64,000 nucleotides of DNA, from the NCBI GenBank assembly GCA_902776565.1, contig CACYQN010000006.1, forward strand, positions 154,709-218,708. The letters run 5' to 3'. Below the pieces are notes generated by a model. It had not been told where the DNA came from. It worked only from the letters and a program-made list of their open reading frames with translations, and did no database searches. The stretch is from an uncultured Bacteroidia bacterium (GTDB taxonomy: Bacteria; Bacteroidota; Bacteroidia; Bacteroidales; ML635J-15). Each line of letters starts with the position of its first letter. The first letter of the stretch is position 1. Shown here piece by piece: positions 4,611 through 64,000 of this stretch. Made by a program: the position numbers and the translations under genes.

Positions 4611-5174
4611 ATGAAAAGGATATTTTTTGTTTTGGCAATCGTACTGATTGCTAGTGTTGCATTTTCGCAGGAAAAGGCAGACAAGAATGGTAAAAAGGAT
4701 AAGGAACAGACCGAAAATGTTGAAAAACGTTCAAGCATAGTGTTCGATAAGCTTGTTCACGACTTTGGCACAATGGAAAAAGGCGGTGATGCAAGTTGTG
4801 TCTTCACATTCAAGAACATAACCAAGAAGCCAGTTACCTTGACAAACGTAAAGACTTCGTGCGGATGTACTGCAGCCGACTGGCCAAAGGAACCGGTTGC
4901 AAAGAAGAAGAAAGGCTCTATCAAGGTTAAGTACGACAGCAACAGGATTGGTAAGTTTACCAAGACCATCAAGGTTTTCATCGAAGGAAATGAAAACCCT
5001 ATACAGTTGGAAATCAAGGGAACTATTGTTTCTCCAAATGCTAACGATGTGAAAACTGTCGCTCCTGTTGAAAAGAAGGAAGTAAAAAAGGTTGACGAGG
5101 CCGACAAGAAGAACGAAATAAAGCCTCAGGTAAAAGATGCCAAGTCGAATGAAGTGAAACAAGTAAAGAAATAA
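4611..5174 (+). CDS. DUF1573 domain protein (secreted) with a Lys/Glu-rich tail
   Basis: FDKLVHDFGTMEKGG...CVFTFKNITKKPVTLTNVKTSCGCTAADWPKEPV matches the DUF1573 core. A signal peptide is present. A TACCTTTG -7 box lies 18 nt upstream. Confidence 0.75.
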   Translation: MKRIFFVLAIVLIASVAFSQEKADKNGKKDKEQTENVEKRSSIVFDKLVHDFGTMEKGGDASCVFTFKNITKKPVTLTNVKTSCGCTAADWPKEPVAKKKKGSIKVKYDSNRIGKFTKTIKVFIEGNENPIQLEIKGTIVSPNANDVKTVAPVEKKEVKKVDEADKKNEIKPQVKDAKSNEVKQVKK

Positions 5175-5208
5175 AGTTTTTATACAATAAATTATAAATT
5201 AAACAGAT

Positions 5209-6408
5209 ATGCCACAGATATCAGAAAAAGGAAAAAACATGCCGTCGTCGCCAATTCGTAAATTGGTTCCCTATTCAGACGCAGCAAAAGCAAGAGGTGT
5301 AAAGGTTTACCATCTTAACATCGGTCAGCCAGACATTAAGACTCCAGAAGTTGCTTTGGAGGCAGTAAAGAACATGACCGATAAGGTTATAGCATATAGT
5401 CATACAGCTGGAAATGCTTCCTACAGGAAGAAACTGGCTGCATTCTACCAGAAGATAGGCATCGACGTTACCGAAAACGACATGCTCATCACTACTGGCG
5501 GTTCGGAAGCAATCGTATTTGCTTTCATGACTACCCTCAACCCAGGCGAAGAAGTGATTGTTCCAGAACCTTTCTACGCAAACTACAATGGTTTCGCAAT
5601 GCAGGCTGGCGTTGTTATCAAGCCTATCACTTCGAGCATAAAGAACGATTTCGCTCTTCCGTCAATCGAAGAGTTCGAAAAGGTTATAACACCTAAGACC
5701 AAGGGTATTGTAATCTGCAATCCTAACAACCCGACTGGCTACCTTTACTCAAAGGAAGAACTCTTCCAGCTGGCCGAAATCGTCAAGAAGCACGACCTTT
5801 ACCTGTATGCCGACGAGGTTTACCGTGAATTCTGCTACGATGGACATAAGCACTTCTCGACAATGCAGATTCCAGGAATCGAGCAGAACGTTATCATGAT
5901 GGACTCGGTTTCGAAACGTTACAGCATGTGCGGTGTTCGCGTTGGTTGCTTGGTTACCAAGAACAAGGAAGTCATCGCAACTGCTACCAAGTTTGCTCAG
6001 GCACGTCTTTGCCCGCCGTCATTCGGTCAGGTTGCTGCCGAGGCTGCTCTCGACACTCCGGCAGAATACTTCCACGAAGTTTATGATGAGTACATTGCCC
6101 GCCGTAACTTTATGGTTAAGGGCTTGAACGAAATCCCAGGCGTATATTGTCCAAATCCTAAGGGCGCATTCTACACAGTAGTTAAGCTTCCTATCGACGA
6201 TGCCGACAAGTTTGCAAAATGGATGCTCGAGGAATTCCAGTACAACGGACAGACCGTAATGGTTGCTCCTGCAACTGGCTTCTACAACACTCCAGGCCTT
6301 GGCAAGAACGAAGTTCGCGTTGCATACGTCCTCAAGATTGAAGACCTTAAGAATGCAATCGAGGTTTTGAAGCACGCTTTGGAAGTATATCCGGGCAGAA
6401 CAATGTAA
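5209..6408 (+). CDS. PLP-dependent aminotransferase, class I (aspartate/aromatic type)
   Basis: N-terminal SPIRKL, NPNNPTG, and the Lys motif SVSKRYSMCGVRVG. Confidence 0.85.
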   Translation: MPQISEKGKNMPSSPIRKLVPYSDAAKARGVKVYHLNIGQPDIKTPEVALEAVKNMTDKVIAYSHTAGNASYRKKLAAFYQKIGIDVTENDMLITTGGSEAIVFAFMTTLNPGEEVIVPEPFYANYNGFAMQAGVVIKPITSSIKNDFALPSIEEFEKVITPKTKGIVICNPNNPTGYLYSKEELFQLAEIVKKHDLYLYADEVYREFCYDGHKHFSTMQIPGIEQNVIMMDSVSKRYSMCGVRVGCLVTKNKEVIATATKFAQARLCPPSFGQVAAEAALDTPAEYFHEVYDEYIARRNFMVKGLNEIPGVYCPNPKGAFYTVVKLPIDDADKFAKWMLEEFQYNGQTVMVAPATGFYNTPGLGKNEVRVAYVLKIEDLKNAIEVLKHALEVYPGRTM

Positions 6409-6423
6409 TTAAAGTTATTTTTT

Positions 6424-6454
6424 AAGAAGCTATCGTAATGATAGCTTCTTTTTT
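6424..6454 (+). terminator. Rho-independent terminator after the aminotransferase gene
   Basis: Stem AAGAAGCTATC / GATAGCTTCTT with loop GTAAT, followed by a T-run. Confidence 0.8.
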
Positions 6455-6477
6455 AATAAATAAAACCTAACCTTTAT

Positions 6478-8811
6478 ATGGAAATATTCAATTCGTGGAG
6501 AAATTGCGAAAGGAATACGAAGCAGATGCACTATCCTTTACTGGGTAAGATTGTCCTTGCTGTGTTCATATATATTTTTACATTTCCCGCGTTTGAACCG
6601 GACCTCGCCCCTGGACTAGACGCCTCATATGTGTGGGGGTTGAACTGGCTGTTCGCCAACAACTATACGACACTTACTCAGCTGATATACCCGATTGGAC
6701 CTTTGGCGCTGCTGAAAATGCCAGCCATAGAAGGTGCCAACTTTATAATATTCCTTATCTTTTATACAACCATAAAATTTTGGTTCATAGCCACTTGCTT
6801 TGGATTATCAGAATCTCATTCCAAGAATTTCTATTGTGCTGCCGCACTGATAATGCTTGCTTCATATTTTGCAGGGATAGACCATATGATAATTTTCCTG
6901 TGCATTATGCTTGGATTCCAATTCGTTAGAACAACAAAGATGCATAAATTTGTTTTGATGGCAGTTTTGGGATTTATCGGTCTATTCATTAAGACTTCAA
7001 TTGGCGTAGAAGCATTGTCGGCGGTATTTGTCGTATGGCTTATGGACTTTTACAAAAACAGAAGTTTCAAAAGGTCGATTATTGCCGTATTGATAGTGTT
7101 TTCAACTGCTATTGTCGTCGGAATGTCTGTTTTGCACGATTTTTCTACAGTGATTGATTACTATTGGGGAGCAATGCATCTAGTGACAGGCTATGGTGGT
7201 ACTCTTTCGCTACACCCCGAAAACAACTGGCTGGCTCTTATCACTTTTATATTGATAATCGCATCATTTCCAATATTCTCTGGAGACAAAGATTCAAAAA
7301 TCATATTTTTTATATCGCTAATTCCAATTTTTGCGAATTGGAAACACGCCTTTGTACGTGAGGACATTACGCATTATCAAGCAATTATCACATTCATCAT
7401 TATATTTTGGTGTATAATATTTATGACTAAGAGCATACGCAAGGGATATACTGTTGTGTGTGCAATGCTTTCGGTAATGATGCTGTACTGGAATATGAAA
7501 GAAATTCCAGGTTATAGCAATAGGAAAATCGAATACTGCGGTATAAATAACTTTTGGGGTACTATTATGGAGTACAATGATTTTGCCGAGCGTATGAACC
7601 TAATTACCGATAATGCCATGTTGAGCGTAAAGTTGCCTGACGATGTGCTGACCAAGTTGGGAAATTCAACAATCGACTTTTATCCTTGGGAACATACTTA
7701 TGCAAAGGAAAATACACTAAATTGGCAACCACGGAAAACCATTGAGATTGGAGCTTCTACATCAAAATGGCTTTCGGATGTGGCTGCAGAAAACTACACT
7801 GGCGACAATTCTGCTGAATATGTATTGTGGCACTTTGAAAAAAATGGATATACCATAGATAACCGTTATCCATTAAACGACGAACCTAATGTCGTATATA
7901 ACATCTTACAGAATTATAATGCTGATTATTACGGAGATAATTATATCATTTGGAAGAAACGTCCAGAATGTAGGCTCATAAGCAAGGGGGCTGATAATGT
8001 TTTGACAGCAAGGTTCAACGAGTGGATTTCTGTTCCAGATTGTGGCGATAATATTCAGCGCATTAAGATTGAAAGTTCAGTAAATTTTACTGGTTTTGTG
8101 AAGAAGACGTTTTTCAAGGACGAAATGTATTTTGTTGATTATATGATACGTAGCGGTGAAATATTTACCTATAGGTATGTACCGTCTACTGCAGTAGACG
8201 GGCTATGGATAAATCCGTTGGTAGAAGATTTCCTGTCGGGCGAACTTGCCGACAAAGTCGACAAGGTTCGTTTCCGTGTGTCGGACGACAGATGCGTCAA
8301 GAAGGAAATTTCAGTACAGTTTGAAACCTGGAATGCTTCCCTTGGAGAAATAGTAAAAACAGTCAAAGATTCCCCTATTGTACTTTATATGAATAATTTC
8401 GAGAATATAGACTCTAAGAATACTGATGCATACGTTTTTAGTGGAGAGCTTTCCAATGTGATTGAACCTCAAGGATTTTCACATACATACGCTCTTCAGA
8501 TGGATTCACTATGGTCTATGCTAGCCGATTCTGTTGACGTTGATTTGAAGGCATCCTGCAAATTCATAAATACAGGTTCTTCACATTTGGTTGTTTCTAT
8601 CGATGGCAACGAAAAAAGTTTGTACGAGTGTTTGTATTTGGGAAATACAGGGTCAGATTTATGGAATAGTGCCAATCTGAAATGCAGCATTAGCCGAGAC
8701 GACTATCCGTCTGGAGTTTTGAAGGTATATGTTTGGAACAATGGAAATCGCCAGACATATATTGACGACATGAAGGTTTCGGTTACGGAAATACCTAAAA
8801 AACTACCGTGA
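6478..8811 (+). CDS. Large polytopic membrane protein of unknown function (multi-TM N-terminal ~330 aa, soluble C-terminal half)
   Basis: 777-aa ORF with many hydrophobic segments in the first third. The start is uncertain (alternative Met at 6526). The 3' end overlaps the convergent GT-C gene by 9 nt. Confidence 0.6.
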   Translation: MEIFNSWRNCERNTKQMHYPLLGKIVLAVFIYIFTFPAFEPDLAPGLDASYVWGLNWLFANNYTTLTQLIYPIGPLALLKMPAIEGANFIIFLIFYTTIKFWFIATCFGLSESHSKNFYCAAALIMLASYFAGIDHMIIFLCIMLGFQFVRTTKMHKFVLMAVLGFIGLFIKTSIGVEALSAVFVVWLMDFYKNRSFKRSIIAVLIVFSTAIVVGMSVLHDFSTVIDYYWGAMHLVTGYGGTLSLHPENNWLALITFILIIASFPIFSGDKDSKIIFFISLIPIFANWKHAFVREDITHYQAIITFIIIFWCIIFMTKSIRKGYTVVCAMLSVMMLYWNMKEIPGYSNRKIEYCGINNFWGTIMEYNDFAERMNLITDNAMLSVKLPDDVLTKLGNSTIDFYPWEHTYAKENTLNWQPRKTIEIGASTSKWLSDVAAENYTGDNSAEYVLWHFEKNGYTIDNRYPLNDEPNVVYNILQNYNADYYGDNYIIWKKRPECRLISKGADNVLTARFNEWISVPDCGDNIQRIKIESSVNFTGFVKKTFFKDEMYFVDYMIRSGEIFTYRYVPSTAVDGLWINPLVEDFLSGELADKVDKVRFRVSDDRCVKKEISVQFETWNASLGEIVKTVKDSPIVLYMNNFENIDSKNTDAYVFSGELSNVIEPQGFSHTYALQMDSLWSMLADSVDVDLKASCKFINTGSSHLVVSIDGNEKSLYECLYLGNTGSDLWNSANLKCSISRDDYPSGVLKVYVWNNGNRQTYIDDMKVSVTEIPKKLP

Positions 8812-23923: not shown

Positions 23924-24529
23924 TTACCTTTTTAATAAATCAGCAAATAATTTCTCAAAATGTTCCTTAAACCATAATGGTGGATTATTTGTTACCTCGT
24001 GAATGCCATCTCTGCCAATGTGCAAAGCGACAACCTTTCCGAAATCTGAATTACCATCAATAAAAGTAATATTATCAAAAAGGCTTAAATTTTCTTTTGT
24101 TTTCTTCAAACCTTCATTAAAATTAAACCTAATCACATCGTCGTTAACATCATGTCCTCCAGTCTGATACCTCTGAATTACACGACAGACACTCTCATCT
24201 TCGGAATATAAACCGAAATAATACATCGAAATCTTAAAGTTTGCTTCCTTGAATTCCAATATCATATTTAGAACCAACTCGCTTGAAAAGTTCGTTTCAA
24301 ATGCAAAATCCGATTTATGTTCAATGGCATAATTCTTCTGCTTTTCCAATTCAGATGCAACCGTACCACTTATCCAATGTTCTGGCCAATCGGGATGCTC
24401 CTTGCGAAGATTCATTGCCAGTTTGTCTCCATCGAACGATTTGGTTCCGATATAAAATGGACAAAGCCGACTTTTTCCTGCCCCATTTGGACCAGCTACT
24501 ATTGTAAACTCCGGTCTTTTCTCCATCAC
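23924..24529 (-). CDS. Zeta-toxin / COG4185-like P-loop kinase (putative toxin)
   Basis: Walker A TIVAGPNGAGKSRL, FAFETNFSS block, RYQTGGHDVNDDVIRFNF block. The start is GTG 24529 or ATG 24526, immediately after the TAG of the upstream ORF. Confidence 0.7.
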   Translation of the reverse strand: MMEKRPEFTIVAGPNGAGKSRLCPFYIGTKSFDGDKLAMNLRKEHPDWPEHWISGTVASELEKQKNYAIEHKSDFAFETNFSSELVLNMILEFKEANFKISMYYFGLYSEDESVCRVIQRYQTGGHDVNDDVIRFNFNEGLKKTKENLSLFDNITFIDGNSDFGKVVALHIGRDGIHEVTNNPPLWFKEHFEKLFADLLKR

Positions 24530-24808
24530 CTATAATTTAATATGGGCAAATCTACCGCATCCGGGCTGTGCCGTGCGCATAATTATATTATATGTGCGAG
24601 TATTGCGATCAAGAATTACTTTATCTTCGCTACCATCAGGATTTGCAAGATATATTGAACCATCATCTCCGAAAAATGGTACGGAAAAACCTTTCAGCCA
24701 CGATTCTGCATAAATACGCTCAATCTCACGCCGAACCTCTTCGTTTACTTCCTTCACGGTTTTGCCATTCTGCAATTCAATATTTTCTATATCGCTGTAT
24801 TTGCACAT
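24530..24808 (-). CDS. 92-aa protein of unknown function, putative cognate antitoxin
   Basis: Directly abuts the toxin gene (stop TAG followed by GTGATG) and has its own TACCTTTG -7 box 15 nt upstream. No recognisable motif. Confidence 0.5.
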   Translation of the reverse strand: MCKYSDIENIELQNGKTVKEVNEEVRREIERIYAESWLKGFSVPFFGDDGSIYLANPDGSEDKVILDRNTRTYNIIMRTAQPGCGRFAHIKL

Positions 24809-25843: not shown

Positions 25844-25993
25844 GGAGATTCCGCATAAACGAATTCACAAGGCTCGTTCCTACGCCTGTTCATTCTGTTT
25901 TGCGGAATGACGGAATGGATGTCATTTCGGAAGGTATAATGAACCAGCGATACGGAACGGGGAGCTGAGTGAATTAACCTATCCGAAATCTCC
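25844..25993. ncRNA. Conserved four-way-junction structured element, copy 1 (strand and nature unknown)
   Basis: Stems GGAGATT/AATCTCC, CCGCA/TGCGG, AATGAC/GTCATT and TCGGA/TCCGA. The loop GATACGGAACGGGGA is conserved, and there are compensatory changes relative to 53025-53233. Confidence 0.45.
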
Positions 25994-25995
25994 CA

Positions 25996-26085
25996 CATTG
26001 CAACTCCTTGTTCTGTAAAAGCATAAGGCAATTTTCTCACCCCGCCACGATTTGAATTCATATTTGATATCGCATTTTGCGACAT
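25996..26085 (-). pseudogene. ORF6N-domain gene remnant (30 codons)
   Basis: Translates to MSQNAISNMNSNRGGVRKLPYAFTEQGVAM. LPYAFTEQGVAM is a signature block of ORF6N-domain proteins as I remember them. Similarity stops at the edge of the structured element. A second, stop-containing copy of the same segment lies at about 26150-26195. Confidence 0.45.
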
Positions 26086-26263
26086 CAAACATACCATCAA
26101 TCCTATTATCAGCATCATAACCATCTATAATACAATGATATAATCATTTTTCCCCGTTACATTTTGTCCAAATTGGATGTCGCAAAATGCGACTTCCAAT
26201 TTTTATCAAAAAAGCACAAGAACTTCCCAACGAAAGTCCCTGTGCCTATATGCCTTGAAAATA

Positions 26264-52682: not shown

Positions 52683-52694
52683 AAAAAAAGAATA

Positions 52695-52761
52695 CGACCT
52701 CTCTGAGGTCGCTTTAATCGTGCGATAAACTTTCTATAAATATCCGACCTCTCCGAGGTCG
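52695..52761 (+). repeat. Left compound terminal inverted repeat (two hairpins CGACCTCTCTGAGGTCG and CGACCTCTCCGAGGTCG)
   Basis: The reverse complement recurs in mirrored order at 53333-53395, and the flanking CTATAAATAT / ATATCTATAG also match. Confidence 0.75.
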
Positions 52762-53024
52762 TTAAGTTCATCCAAATACAAGTCCACACATTTTGTTGTA
52801 CCATGTAAAAATCTGACACAGTGCATTTTTCACTAATTTGCAGAATCTTTAGCAGACAACAATAATAAAACAATTGACAATAATTCACATTTTTAATTTT
52901 TTGTATTCAAATCGTCACAGCCAATATTCCGTTCTACCTCTCTGTATATTAGCAAATTATAAGTGTAGATTATAAAAACATTGGGAACTGTATACAAGTT
53001 GACTAAAGAATGTACTACAGACAT

Positions 53025-53233
53025 GTCATTCCGCAAGTTAGAACAATAACGCGATACGAAACGGGGAGCGTAATATTGTTCAACTGTGCGGAATCTCCAA
53101 ATGAAAACGTTTTTATAGGAGATTGGCTGCGCCGAGCTAAAGGTGCCGCATAAACGAACTCACAAGCAACGTGCCTTATGCTGTTCGTTCTGTTTTACGG
53201 ACCCTTTAGTGCACGAAGCTTGCGAGTAATGAC
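53025..53233. ncRNA. Conserved four-way-junction structured element, copy 2 (circularly permuted relative to copy 1)
   Basis: GTCATT(53025-30)...AATGAC(53228-33) is the closing stem. Arm A runs 53031-53091 with loop GATACGAAACGGGGA. Hairpin AATCTCC(53092-98)/GGAGATT(53118-24). Arm B runs 53146-53200. Confidence 0.45.
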
Positions 53234-53332
53234 TCAGAGGGCATAGGAAAAAAGCACATTGTGTCAACACGTATATAGTTTCCAAAACATTTGCCTATTA
53301 GTAGAATCATTTGGTATTGTCTATGAAAAACA

Positions 53333-53395
53333 GACCTCGGAGAGGTCAAATATCTATAGTAAAAAAAGACAAAAAAAACGACCTCAGAGAGGTCG
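53333..53395 (-). repeat. Right compound terminal inverted repeat
   Basis: GACCTCGGAGAGGTC (53333-47) and CGACCTCAGAGAGGTCG (53379-95). Confidence 0.75.
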
Positions 53396-53411
53396 AACTA
53401 TTTATCATTGC

Positions 53412-61774: not shown

Positions 61775-64000
61775 ATGGTTAATTTCACGCACTTACACGT
61801 TCACTCTCACTACTCAGTACTCGACGGAATGTCGAAGGTTCCCGACTTGGTAAACAAGGCCATGAAAACCGGTATGTATGCACTTGCCCTCACCGACCAT
61901 GGCAACATGTACGGTATAAAGGATTTTGTGGATACTGTCAATGGTGTAAACAAGAAAACCAAGGAAAAAATCAAGGAACAGGAGAAAATTCTTGCAAAAG
62001 AGGATGCCACCGAAGAGGAAAAAGCCAATGCTACCCAAAAGATTGAAGAACTGAAGAAACAGATCTTCAAGCCGATAATCGGAATTGAAGCCTACTGCGC
62101 ACGCCGTGGCCTGAAGCTAAAGGACAAGGACTACCGCGAAGCCTCGCCCGAAACTGGAAAGATGAAAATCGTGGACAACAGCGGATACCATTTAATATTA
62201 TTGGCGAAGAACAAAAAGGGCTACCAGAACCTCTGCAAGCTTTCGTCGATTGCATTTATTGACGGCTACTATGGCTCGGCACGAATCGACAAGGAAGTCC
62301 TCGAGAAATACCACGAGGGAATAATCGCAAGTTCCGCCTGCCTCGGTGGAGAAATTCCACAACTGATAATTGCCAACAAGCTCGACAAGGCCGAAGAATC
62401 GGTACTTTGGTTCAAGCGTGTGTTCGGCGACGACTTCTATATCGAACTTCAGCGCCACAAGACCGACAAGCCTGGCGGTGCACGCGACACCTACGAGAAA
62501 CAATGCGTCGTAAACAAGGTGCTGGTGGAACTTGCCCGCAAACACGACATCAAGATTATTGCCACCAACGATGTACATTTTGTGGAGGAAGAACACGGCG
62601 AAGCCCACGAGCGACTCATCTGCCTCAGCACGCAGACCGAACTGAACGCACCCAACCGAGGAATGGCTTACACCAAGCAGGAATGGCTAAAGTCGCCAGA
62701 AGAAATGGAAGCTATCTTCTCCGACCTGCCCGAAGCAATCGAGAATACAATGGAAATCGCCGACAAGGTTGAGGTTTACGACATCGACTCGGGACCAATT
62801 ATGCCAGCTTTCCCTATTCCAGAAGACTTTGGTACAGAGGAAGAATACCGCCAGAAATTCACTCACGAGGACCTTTTCAACGAATTTACCCAAGATGAAA
62901 ACGGCAACGTCGTGATGTCGCAGGAAGAAGCAAATAAAAAAATCGAGAAAATTGGCGGTTACGAAAAGCTGTACCGAATCAAACTCGAAGCCGACTACCT
63001 TGCAAAATTGGCTTGGGACGGCGCACACAAGCGTTACGGAGAGAATCTCACTCAAGAACAAACCGACAGAATAAAGTTCGAACTGCACATAATGAAGACT
63101 ATGGGTTTCCCCGGCTACTTCCTTATTGTTCAAGACTATATACGCGGAGCAAGGGAAGAATTGGGCGTTTGGGTTGGCCCTGGCCGTGGTTCGGCTGCCG
63201 GTTCGGTTGTTGCATATTGCCTGCATATTACCGACCTCGACCCACTGAAGTACGACCTTCTGTTCGAGCGTTTCCTCAACCCCGACCGTATATCCCTCCC
63301 CGATATTGACGTTGACTTCGACGATGCAGGACGAGGAAAGGTACTCGACTGGGTGACACATAAATACGGAGCGGAAAAGGTCGCTCATATCATAACCTAC
63401 GGAACCATGGCAACCAAGTCGGCAATTGCCGATGTAGGTCGTGTACAGGGTGTGCCTCTGGAACGAGTCAATGAGATTAAGAAACTTATTCCCGACAAGT
63501 TCCCCGACAACATTAAAGACGAAAAAGGGAAAAATCCAAAGGTAAACCTAAAGAACTGCATAAAGTATGTCCCTGAAATAAAACAGATTGTCGAAGGTGA
63601 CGACTACAACGCAGCCACAATGATTGAATATGCCGAAGAACTTGAAGGCACTATCCGTCAGGTGGGAATACACGCCTGCGGATTCATCATCGGTGCCGAC
63701 GACCTCAGCAAGTTCGCCCCCATCAGCACCATCGAGGACAAGGAAACCGAAGGTCGCGTACCTGTAACCCAGTACGACGGCCACGTCATCGAAAGTGTAG
63801 GACTTATAAAGATGGACTTCCTCGGACTAATTACCTTGTCGATAATGAAGGAAGCCGTTTCCAACATAAAGAAGACAAAAGGTATCGACTTCGACATCAA
63901 CAGCATTCCAATCGACGACCCCGATACATTCAAGATATATTGTGCCGGCAAGACTGTCGCCATATTCCAATTTGAATCGCCCGGAATGCAGAAACACCTC
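61775..64000 (+). CDS. dnaE: DNA polymerase III alpha subunit (3' end outside the window)
   Basis: Not in the ORF track because it runs off the window. ATG 61775 opens MVNFTHLHVHSHYSVLDGMSKVPDLVNKAMKTGMYALALTDHGNMYG (PHP domain), later GFPGYFLIVQDYI and GPGRGSAAGSVVAYCLHITDLDP. The frame is open through 64000. Confidence 0.9.
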   Translation, partial: MVNFTHLHVHSHYSVLDGMSKVPDLVNKAMKTGMYALALTDHGNMYGIKDFVDTVNGVNKKTKEKIKEQEKILAKEDATEEEKANATQKIEELKKQIFKPIIGIEAYCARRGLKLKDKDYREASPETGKMKIVDNSGYHLILLAKNKKGYQNLCKLSSIAFIDGYYGSARIDKEVLEKYHEGIIASSACLGGEIPQLIIANKLDKAEESVLWFKRVFGDDFYIELQRHKTDKPGGARDTYEKQCVVNKVLVELARKHDIKIIATNDVHFVEEEHGEAHERLICLSTQTELNAPNRGMAYTKQEWLKSPEEMEAIFSDLPEAIENTMEIADKVEVYDIDSGPIMPAFPIPEDFGTEEEYRQKFTHEDLFNEFTQDENGNVVMSQEEANKKIEKIGGYEKLYRIKLEADYLAKLAWDGAHKRYGENLTQEQTDRIKFELHIMKTMGFPGYFLIVQDYIRGAREELGVWVGPGRGSAAGSVVAYCLHITDLDPLKYDLLFERFLNPDRISLPDIDVDFDDAGRGKVLDWVTHKYGAEKVAHIITYGTMATKSAIADVGRVQGVPLERVNEIKKLIPDKFPDNIKDEKGKNPKVNLKNCIKYVPEIKQIVEGDDYNAATMIEYAEELEGTIRQVGIHACGFIIGADDLSKFAPISTIEDKETEGRVPVTQYDGHVIESVGLIKMDFLGLITLSIMKEAVSNIKKTKGIDFDINSIPIDDPDTFKIYCAGKTVAIFQFESPGMQKHL

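Follow-up and report, generated by a model that had tools for sequence, protein, structure and literature searches.

A circularly permuted four-way-junction repeat of uncultured Bacteroidales, probably a mosaic of inverted half-units in miniature transposons

How does one small folded element come to occur twice in the same genome with its chain opened at two different helices? This question is raised by a 64,000-nucleotide (nt) stretch of an uncultured Bacteroidia bacterium of the order Bacteroidales (contig CACYQN010000006.1, positions 154,709 to 218,708), here called the window. It contains two copies of an intergenic element, copy 1 and copy 2 (Table 1), each composed of two long hairpins, arm A and arm B, and two short helices, X and Y. 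In one copy Y closes the structure and X is capped by a loop; in the other the roles are exchanged. A preliminary description of the locus held that the same four helices are present in both copies with the chain opened elsewhere, and compared this with the permuted forms of small self-cleaving ribozymes. The best explanation, to which we assign a probability of about 60%, is that both copies belong to a new mosaic repeat, similar to repetitive extragenic palindromes (REPs) and bacterial interspersed mosaic elements (BIMEs), that is carried in miniature transposons, and that the permutation reflects an alternative juxtaposition of half-units.

The circular permutation between copy 1 and copy 2 is confirmed by three comparisons, which uphold the first of these claims. 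When the intergenic region of copy 2 was compared with the window by blastn, a single other place was found, where arm B aligned to 25846-25906 and arm A to 25919-25993, with the order swapped. Profiles of the arms searched with nhmmer place B before A in copy 1 and A before B in copy 2. A covariance model of the usual order matches copy 2 over its full length (115 bits), but copy 1 only as two half matches (70.5 and 44.6 bits). Every coordinate given earlier for copy 2 is correct, and this copy is overlapped only by chance open reading frames (ORFs), all of 47 amino acids (aa) or fewer.

The relationship between the arms suggests how both orders can give one fold. Arm B aligned with the reverse complement of arm A scores 44-48 against a null of about 10 ± 6 (z of about 6-7), compared with only 13-30 when the two arms are aligned directly. 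The short tags that border the arms, GTCATT/AATGAC and AATCTCC/GGAGATT, are exact reverse complements. The building block would be a tagged hairpin half-unit of ∼75 nt, consisting of GTCATT, a bulged hairpin of ∼60 nt with a conserved loop, and AATCTCC, which would exist as arm A and arm B, two versions that have diverged and are inverted relative to each other. In the head-to-head arrangement, A then B, the inner tags would form hairpin X and the outer tags the closing helix Y; this arrangement is the usual one and is found in copy 2. In the tail-to-tail arrangement of copy 1, B then A, helix X would close the structure and Y would be capped. Because the tags of the two arms are reverse-complementary, any inverted pair of half-units can fold into a perfect four-way junction, whether as single-stranded DNA or as RNA. 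Since arm B, tags included, repeats arm A in inverted form, either order yields the same junction, hence the permutation. Judged from the sequences, the permutation is most simply a by-product of this inverted-half-unit design, with the two halves joined in the other order.

Half-units also occur alone. Arm-A-only units in L032 and L088 (fetched loci carry numbers of this kind) keep their tags, as GTCATC and GATCTCC, with no pairing partner, and another arm-A-only unit, likewise with its tags, is found in L099. Across the family the tags read GTCAT[TC] and [AG]ATCTCC, and the hairpins measure 55-61 nt. The preliminary description had named another origin, a tandem-duplication artefact in which full B-A-B-A units are truncated differently. 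Part of this picture is indeed seen, in that L202 has a B-A-B' arrangement and the arm-A-only units of L032 and L088 form direct arrays together with another type of hairpin module. With the covariance model, the A-X-B' part of L202 scores, in addition, as a full element in the usual order (140 bits). We note that in L032 (355-664) and L088 (6299-6560) the arm-A-only units alternate with the module TTTGCCCAAGTTTAACGCCCTTAAGG...CCTTAGGGCGGAGGGGGCAAA in units of ∼205 nt, and this second, conserved hairpin module may be another partner for arm A in that lineage.

Copy 1 is not the only permuted member. Further permutation types in metagenomes had been proposed as a thing to look for, and a metagenome scan with the pattern AATGAC-N4-24-GTCATT beside arm A gave three more permuted members among the matches listed. 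One, L189, is the orthologue of copy 1. The other two, L167 and L202, add two independent loci, unrelated to each other and with different flanks, whose Y loops are CTCTTTCT and TATAGAGAC, respectively. The Y loops of copy 1, L167, and L202 are all 8-9 nt long and unrelated in sequence, and compensatory changes in both arms set the permuted members apart from one another. L167 lies in a 233-bp unit whose own terminal repeats are GGATTATCCGCAA and TTGCAGATAATC and whose 9-bp duplication, ATTTTTAGA, is perfect. Since the unit is bounded by these repeats and by the duplication, the permuted form itself must have transposed. In the L189 copy, 8 nt of the arm-B loop have been lost and the arm-A loop bears a substitution, as expected for a copy at a fixed site that is no longer under selection.

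We compared two folds on ten insert-free members: the four-way junction, and a rod in which the 5' half of the element pairs with the 3' half. In the four-way junction, 98.6% of the alignment cells are paired, a percentage that is inflated (as the covariation is not) by having dropped, on the basis of the same alignment, pairs supported by fewer than 8 of the 10 rows. Fourteen pairs are changed on both sides, and the covariation score of 0.310 compares with 0.135 for shuffles, none of which reaches 0.310 in 500 trials, and with 0.04-0.08 for slid controls. The rod pairs 82.7% of cells with a covariation score of 0.114. It has five pairs changed on both sides, three in the X-containing junction-proximal helix and two in a short internal helix, and its counts of both-side changes and of pair types are not above those of shuffles. 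The four-way junction is backed by covariation and the rod is not. The rod is nevertheless the minimum-energy structure of most members, and for copy 1 it is the thermodynamic optimum (-60.0 kcal/mol against -50.3 kcal/mol for the junction); a rod-like, viroid-like fold was rejected as the selected structure since it has no covariation beyond helix X.

Within the junction, stem pairs of arm A covary while its loop is conserved, arm B contains nine pairs with double changes, and hairpin X contributes one covarying pair, C-G to G-C (columns 73/102), beneath a loop of variable length and sequence. The stems vary, whereas the loops of arm A, GAUACGGAACGGGGAG, and of arm B, ACGUUCCUUA, hardly change. 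The junction has no unpaired nucleotides, and the two long arms are opposite each other around it, not adjacent. Folding energies lie at z = -5.4 to -7.1 relative to dinucleotide shuffles on both strands, and the whole-element energies of the two strands are about equal. Covariation as such cannot separate RNA from single-stranded DNA.

The means of spread would be miniature transposons, with terminal inverted repeats and target duplications, in which the doublets ride or which they themselves are. Copy 2 lies inside a 301-bp unit (52983-53283), and the terminal repeat of this unit also bounds the homologous units L035, L112, and L041. The 7-8-bp duplications of this unit type are AAAAAATG in L112, AAAAATAA in L041, and TTTTTAA in L035. 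A second unit type of ∼269 bp has the repeat TATTRGTGTCCGCTAAA; six loci were examined and five have 9-bp duplications. The duplications read ATTTTGATT in L111, AATTATTAT in L049, and ATTTTTTTG in L003; those of L014 and L030 match at 8 of 9 positions, and L026 is without a clear duplication. Altogether, 10 of the 11 units examined, the window unit and L167 included, show terminal repeats and a 7-9-bp duplication. The units are 233-395 bp long, and three different types of terminal repeat, the third being that of L167, carry one core. In the fetched loci the paired terminal repeats are always merely 230-400 bp apart. An invertible promoter ("inverton") flanked by inverted repeats was considered and set aside, as the target duplications point to transposition. 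Arm B may partially resemble the repeat consensus of the Mpi invertase.

The sites of the two copies differ among relatives. At the copy-1 site, the gap between the acetyl-CoA synthetase gene and a 232-aa gene measures 480 nt in the window and is empty in L233 (57 nt; protein identity 88%) and L236 (74 nt; 80%). At the copy-2 site, 3' of a TonB-dependent receptor gene, unrelated sequence is found in L241 (protein identity 90%) and L240 (99%), the L240 contig stopping 36 nt past the stop codon of this gene. In L242 (74%), the same gap holds a family member of the other unit type in the orientation opposite to copy 2. Neither copy is syntenic with close relatives at the orthologous sites of L233, L236, L241, and L240. 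No intact terminal repeats were recognised around copy 1.

Some observations concern the architecture of the units. Copy 2 has two optional inserts, which were described earlier as paired and extending arm B. The pairing is present in copy 2, but other members carry the inserts singly and the pairing is not conserved. Across the family members compared, insert modules of ∼27 nt occur at tag/arm boundaries in either orientation. Such a module (53201-53227 in the window, with the other loci in Table 1) has a TTTAG/CTAAA tag and is an imperfect palindrome centred on AAGCTT. In the second unit type, the terminal repeat (TTTAGCGGACAC) bears the same tag, and the module may be a REP-like mini-element of its own. 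In the ∼269-bp type (for example L111, L071, L100, and L026), the 8-12 nt before GTCATT and after AATGAC are G-rich, mutually alike direct repeats, such as ATAGAGTAGCTT and ATAGAGGGTTT, which could date, as an old target duplication, from the time when the core inserted into the ∼269-bp carrier.

Table 1. Positions of copy 1, copy 2, and the carrier unit of copy 2 in the window
Feature	Position	Strand	Remarks
Copy 2, whole element	53025-53233		order Y5'-arm A-hairpin X-arm B-Y3'
Copy 2, tag GTCATT (5' strand of helix Y)	53025-53030	+	same in every member
Copy 2, arm A	53031-53091	+	61-nt bulged hairpin; nearly invariant 16-nt loop motif GATACGRAACGGGGAG
Copy 2, hairpin X	53092-53124	+	AATCTCC 53092-53098; 19-nt variable loop 53099-53117; GGAGATT 53118-53124
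Copy 2, optional insert GGCTGCGCCGAGCTAAAGGTG	53125-53145	+	from X to arm B; in L021 and L041, not in minimal members
Copy 2, arm B	53146-53200	+	55-nt hairpin; loop ACGTKCCTTA; diverged inverted copy of arm A
Copy 2, optional tagged palindromic insert ACCCTTTAGTGCACGAAGCTTGCGAGT	53201-53227	-	27 nt; module also in L015, L026, L086, L107, and L112
Copy 2, tag AATGAC (3' strand of helix Y)	53228-53233	+	
Copy 1, whole element	25844-25993	same as copy 2	order X-arm B-hairpin Y-arm A-X
Copy 1, tag GGAGATT (5' strand of closing helix X)	25844-25850	+	
Copy 1, arm B	25851-25905	+	
Copy 1, hairpin Y	25906-25926	+	AATGAC 25906-25911; loop GGAATGGAT 25912-25920; GTCATT 25921-25926
Copy 1, arm A	25927-25986	+	subtype common to all permuted members
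Copy 1, tag AATCTCC (3' strand of closing helix X)	25987-25993	+	
Target-site duplication, left, AAAACATT	52975-52982	.	same 8-mer 3' of right terminal repeat
Left terminal inverted repeat GGGAACTGTATACAAGTTGAC	52983-53003	+	21 bp; of the 301-bp carrier
Right terminal inverted repeat GTCAACACGTATATAGTTTCC	53263-53283	-	
Target-site duplication, right, AAAACATT	53284-53291	.	

The extent of the family was assessed in a genome scan of one genome per species with the arm-A loop motif as query, which gave at least 112 loci among the matches listed. At least about 30 of these matches are true relatives, all from uncultured Bacteroidales, mostly of ruminants (cattle, buffalo, yak, and deer), and with several per genome. 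In the same scan, at least 24 members from Bacteroidales metagenome-assembled genomes are delimited by GTCATT and AATGAC, all in the copy-2 order, and at least five copies are present in one such genome. Similarity between subfamilies starts and stops exactly at these two tags. The neighbouring genes are convergent at nine loci, tandem at nine, and divergent at four, with no preferred orientation of the element to genes, on crude ORF calls. Some members lie 11-18 nt upstream of a start codon or immediately before a terminator-like hairpin. Viral contigs, phage records, and plasmid records contained nothing similar, and a phage or plasmid origin was rejected on these zero matches. Rfam 15 at gathering thresholds, run on the whole window, matched neither copy, and in E-value mode up to E = 10 no family matched either copy on either strand of the two regions. 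ARAGORN likewise found nothing at the copies, only three ordinary transfer RNAs (tRNAs) elsewhere in the window. We rejected a known RNA family or a tRNA-like gene after these empty results. Taken as a whole, the family is probably one of mobile intergenic repeats, small and non-coding, that occur in uncultured Bacteroidales, largely in ruminant gut samples, and that have not been described previously. Separately, one rumen metagenome contig, L242, has three family members in 7.4 kb (261-412, 4999-5226, and 6406-6562). The metagenome scan also returned, in L116 (1650-2520), an unrelated high-GC tandem array of 132- and 182-bp units with the ends GTCATTCCGGAAGG...CCGGAATGAC; these tandem matches were picked up by the junction pattern by chance and are not family members.

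The closest known systems include the REP doublets (REPINs) and BIMEs of Proteobacteria (PMC2817692, PMC3333891, and PMC3116915). REPs in BIMEs alternate in orientation (PMC2817692, PMC3333891). In those systems, as in ours, tagged palindromes form inverted pairs or alternating arrays with short linkers, and the repeats are intergenic, multi-copy, and found in either orientation, with compensatory change that keeps the pairing. As with the Y and Z REPs, the two unit types have diverged and always stand inverted to each other, and in both systems a long-hairpin fold competes with a two-hairpin fold. The differences are that REPs are 20-40 nt long with GT[AG]G or CGTC tags, whereas the present units are ∼75 nt, with long near-invariant loops of 10-16 nt and the tags GTCATT and AATCTCC. 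Unlike REPINs, these doublets are hosted by Bacteroidales, lie within units with terminal repeats and target duplications, and have no gene for a REP-associated tyrosine transposase (RAYT) that we could see in the window or the 243 fetched loci. [quoted passage not shown] Unlike MITEs, they combine one junction core with at least three unrelated terminal-repeat types, or with none, and the core is found in two permuted orders. The family also recalls hammerhead types I-III and the P1, P3, and P5 forms of twister, in that a constant multi-helix core is opened at different helices with covarying stems in both forms. It differs in that its conserved bases are in terminal loops, the junction lacks unpaired nucleotides, there is no strand asymmetry, the permutation stems from inverted repetition of a half-unit, and no model is matched (hammerhead, twister, twister-sister, hairpin, pistol, hatchet, HDV-like, or hovlinc).

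[quoted passage not shown] Subclass 2.6 of these Y1 (HUH) enzymes comes from the same phylum and has dispersed, repeated hairpins that do not carry the GTAG tag. Its published hairpins are, however, 24 nt long and GCTAG-tagged, and no such gene was seen near any copy of our family in the window or the 243 fetched loci. The published "atypical REPs" of Bacteroidetes were rejected as a match, the family motifs being absent from the supplementary tables of PMC6006769.

In the REP/BIME-like explanation, the loops and the pairing would be kept since only intact copies would be recognised and amplified by an enzyme acting in trans, and the B-A order may have arisen by partial tandem duplication and loss, or from a head-to-tail or circular junction. 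Several results weigh against it. We found no transposase for any terminal-repeat type and no ORF with an HUH/Y1 motif in the window or the 243 fetched loci. A transposase nearby was rejected on this ground and on a Pfam comparison of 17 window genes, which returned no transposase or recombinase and nearly all of which are ordinary chromosomal genes. Three unrelated carrier backbones share the core, which may move by some other mechanism, and "naked" cores have no consistent duplication directly outside GTCATT and AATGAC, where a flanking target duplication was rejected as a candidate. Conservation is far higher in the 16-nt and 10-nt loops than in the stems, and the two loops are complementary over 6 nt (GGAACG/CGUUCC) in nearly all members, features that a functional RNA or a tertiary contact would explain equally well. 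Within the permuted clade, compensatory changes indicate selection on the fold itself and not merely inherited palindromy. Finally, all four permuted sequences share one arm-A subtype, and the B-A order may be a single event; only one B-A-B' array is among the matches listed.

Several of these points are shared with a reading in which the junction would function as RNA, whether as a small non-coding RNA, as one that binds protein, or as a new ribozyme that cleaves or ligates itself. Its activity would rest on the fold and the two conserved loops, so that the position of the chain ends would be irrelevant and both connectivities would be tolerated, as in hammerhead and twister, the MITEs serving as mere vehicles. 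The strong covariation in arms A, B, and X with near-invariant loops, the compensatory changes that keep pairing in the permuted clade, the complementary terminal loops, the presence of one core in three carrier backbones, and the placement of some members just before a start codon or next to a terminator-like hairpin would all fit such an RNA. Yet the strands are equally stable, and among 779 predicted pairs in the unique arms, 767 are Watson-Crick and 12 are G-U (∼1.5%; 11 in arm B), with two A-C mismatches; in the ten-member alignment, G-U occurs at only three pair positions. These events are too few for the strand to be assigned from G-U versus A-C counts. The two promoter-like sites compare with 2.7 expected by chance, orientation to neighbouring genes is unbiased, the loci are not conserved among close relatives, and the orthologous copy in L189 has lost part of its arm-B loop. 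The tags are kept even where they have no partner. The loop-loop complementarity is conserved but shows no covariation, its central position varying freely, and a kissing interaction of the two terminal loops is no more than a candidate. Opposite arms in stacked four-way junctions disfavour docking of the hairpin-ribozyme type, and arms A and B are opposite. We see no sign of RNA-specific selection, and we regard the functional-RNA reading as improbable. The ribozyme analogy of the preliminary description fares no better, given the lack of an Rfam match, of strand asymmetry, of a fixed gene orientation, and of synteny. That description saw no convincing match to hammerhead or twister-like cores, and Rfam 15, with all self-cleaving classes, is likewise empty for both copies on both strands.

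A second alternative, in line with another idea of the preliminary description, accepts mobility and changes its route: the core would move through a circular or head-to-tail tandem intermediate of single- or double-stranded DNA, and the permuted copies would be junctions of right end, short spacer, and left end, fixed in the genome after the circle opened in the X loop instead of at Y. The 8-9-nt length of the unrelated Y loops GGAATGGAT, CTCTTTCT, and TATAGAGAC equals that of the 8-9-bp target duplications, as for abutted ends with flanking DNA between them; GTCATTCCG and CGGAATGAC are 9-bp inverted ends, and subfamily similarity is bounded exactly by these tags. Many insertion sequence families form such junctions. 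The "naked" cores in the usual order, however, have no consistent duplication outside GTCATT and AATGAC. A single rearrangement suffices for permuted members of one arm-A subtype, and the B-A-B' array of L202 fits duplication and loss just as well. We consider this route unlikely.

In a more novel reading, selection on the four-way fold would act on the tagged hairpins with their invariant loops, either as a structure that is recognised or as an active RNA; both connectivities would be maintained, and at least three transposon backbones would have captured the structure. The element would be either a new self-processing RNA, cleaving or ligating, that hitch-hikes on MITEs or the substrate of an undescribed single-stranded-DNA transposase of Bacteroidales that acts via circular intermediates. 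We view this reading as a long shot. Lastly, copy 1 as a one-off local rearrangement or an assembly artefact, an idea encouraged by its being the sole permuted one of the 25 family members listed from the genome scan and the window, is hardly credible and is already refuted, as the same arrangement is found in the orthologous metagenome contig L189 and at the unrelated loci L167 and L202, the former with its own repeats and 9-bp duplication.

The surroundings of both copies contain other repeats and genes. Four copies of a G+C-rich hairpin of 15-17 nt, CGACCTCTCNGAGGTCG, all scored as terminator-like, lie at 52687-52763 and 53333-53403, forming two nested inverted repeats of 29-30 nt that bracket the whole inserted stretch in which copy 2 lies. 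This hairpin is also clustered in L071 (4369-4723), and one further copy is at 63700 of the window. Beside copy 1, a stretch of ∼130 bp (26062-26195) is bounded by inverted copies of the palindrome GTCGCAAAATGCGAC, of which L189 has a single one, and looks like another small insertion or duplication. In L241 (4967-5401) and at the end of L240, a different repeat, with several units resembling AGTAGCGGATGCTGAAATAATTCAGCATGAC, occupies the gap downstream of the TonB-dependent receptor gene. On the minus strand of the window (23924-24808), a 92-aa ORF without a match in Pfam is followed directly by a 201-aa gene of the Zeta-toxin family; the two could be a toxin-antitoxin pair, ∼270 bp from the gene for the 233-aa membrane protein. 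A riboswitch or leader of this membrane protein gene at copy 1 was rejected, since the L233 and L236 orthologues are without the element and the neighbours of family members are unrelated and in any orientation.

In the REP/BIME-like explanation, the permutation is accounted for without invoking catalysis. An inverted pair of tagged hairpins gives the same junction in either order, which is a warning for screens that use permuted connectivity as a ribozyme signature. The family has unusually long units, loops conserved across subfamilies, a core found in several miniature-transposon backbones, and clear target duplications and empty sites. Such repeats break metagenome assemblies, as in L240, and render intergenic DNA hypervariable among strains with 99% identity in the flanking proteins. 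Knowing which enzyme recognises the loops would reveal how REP-like systems operate outside Proteobacteria.

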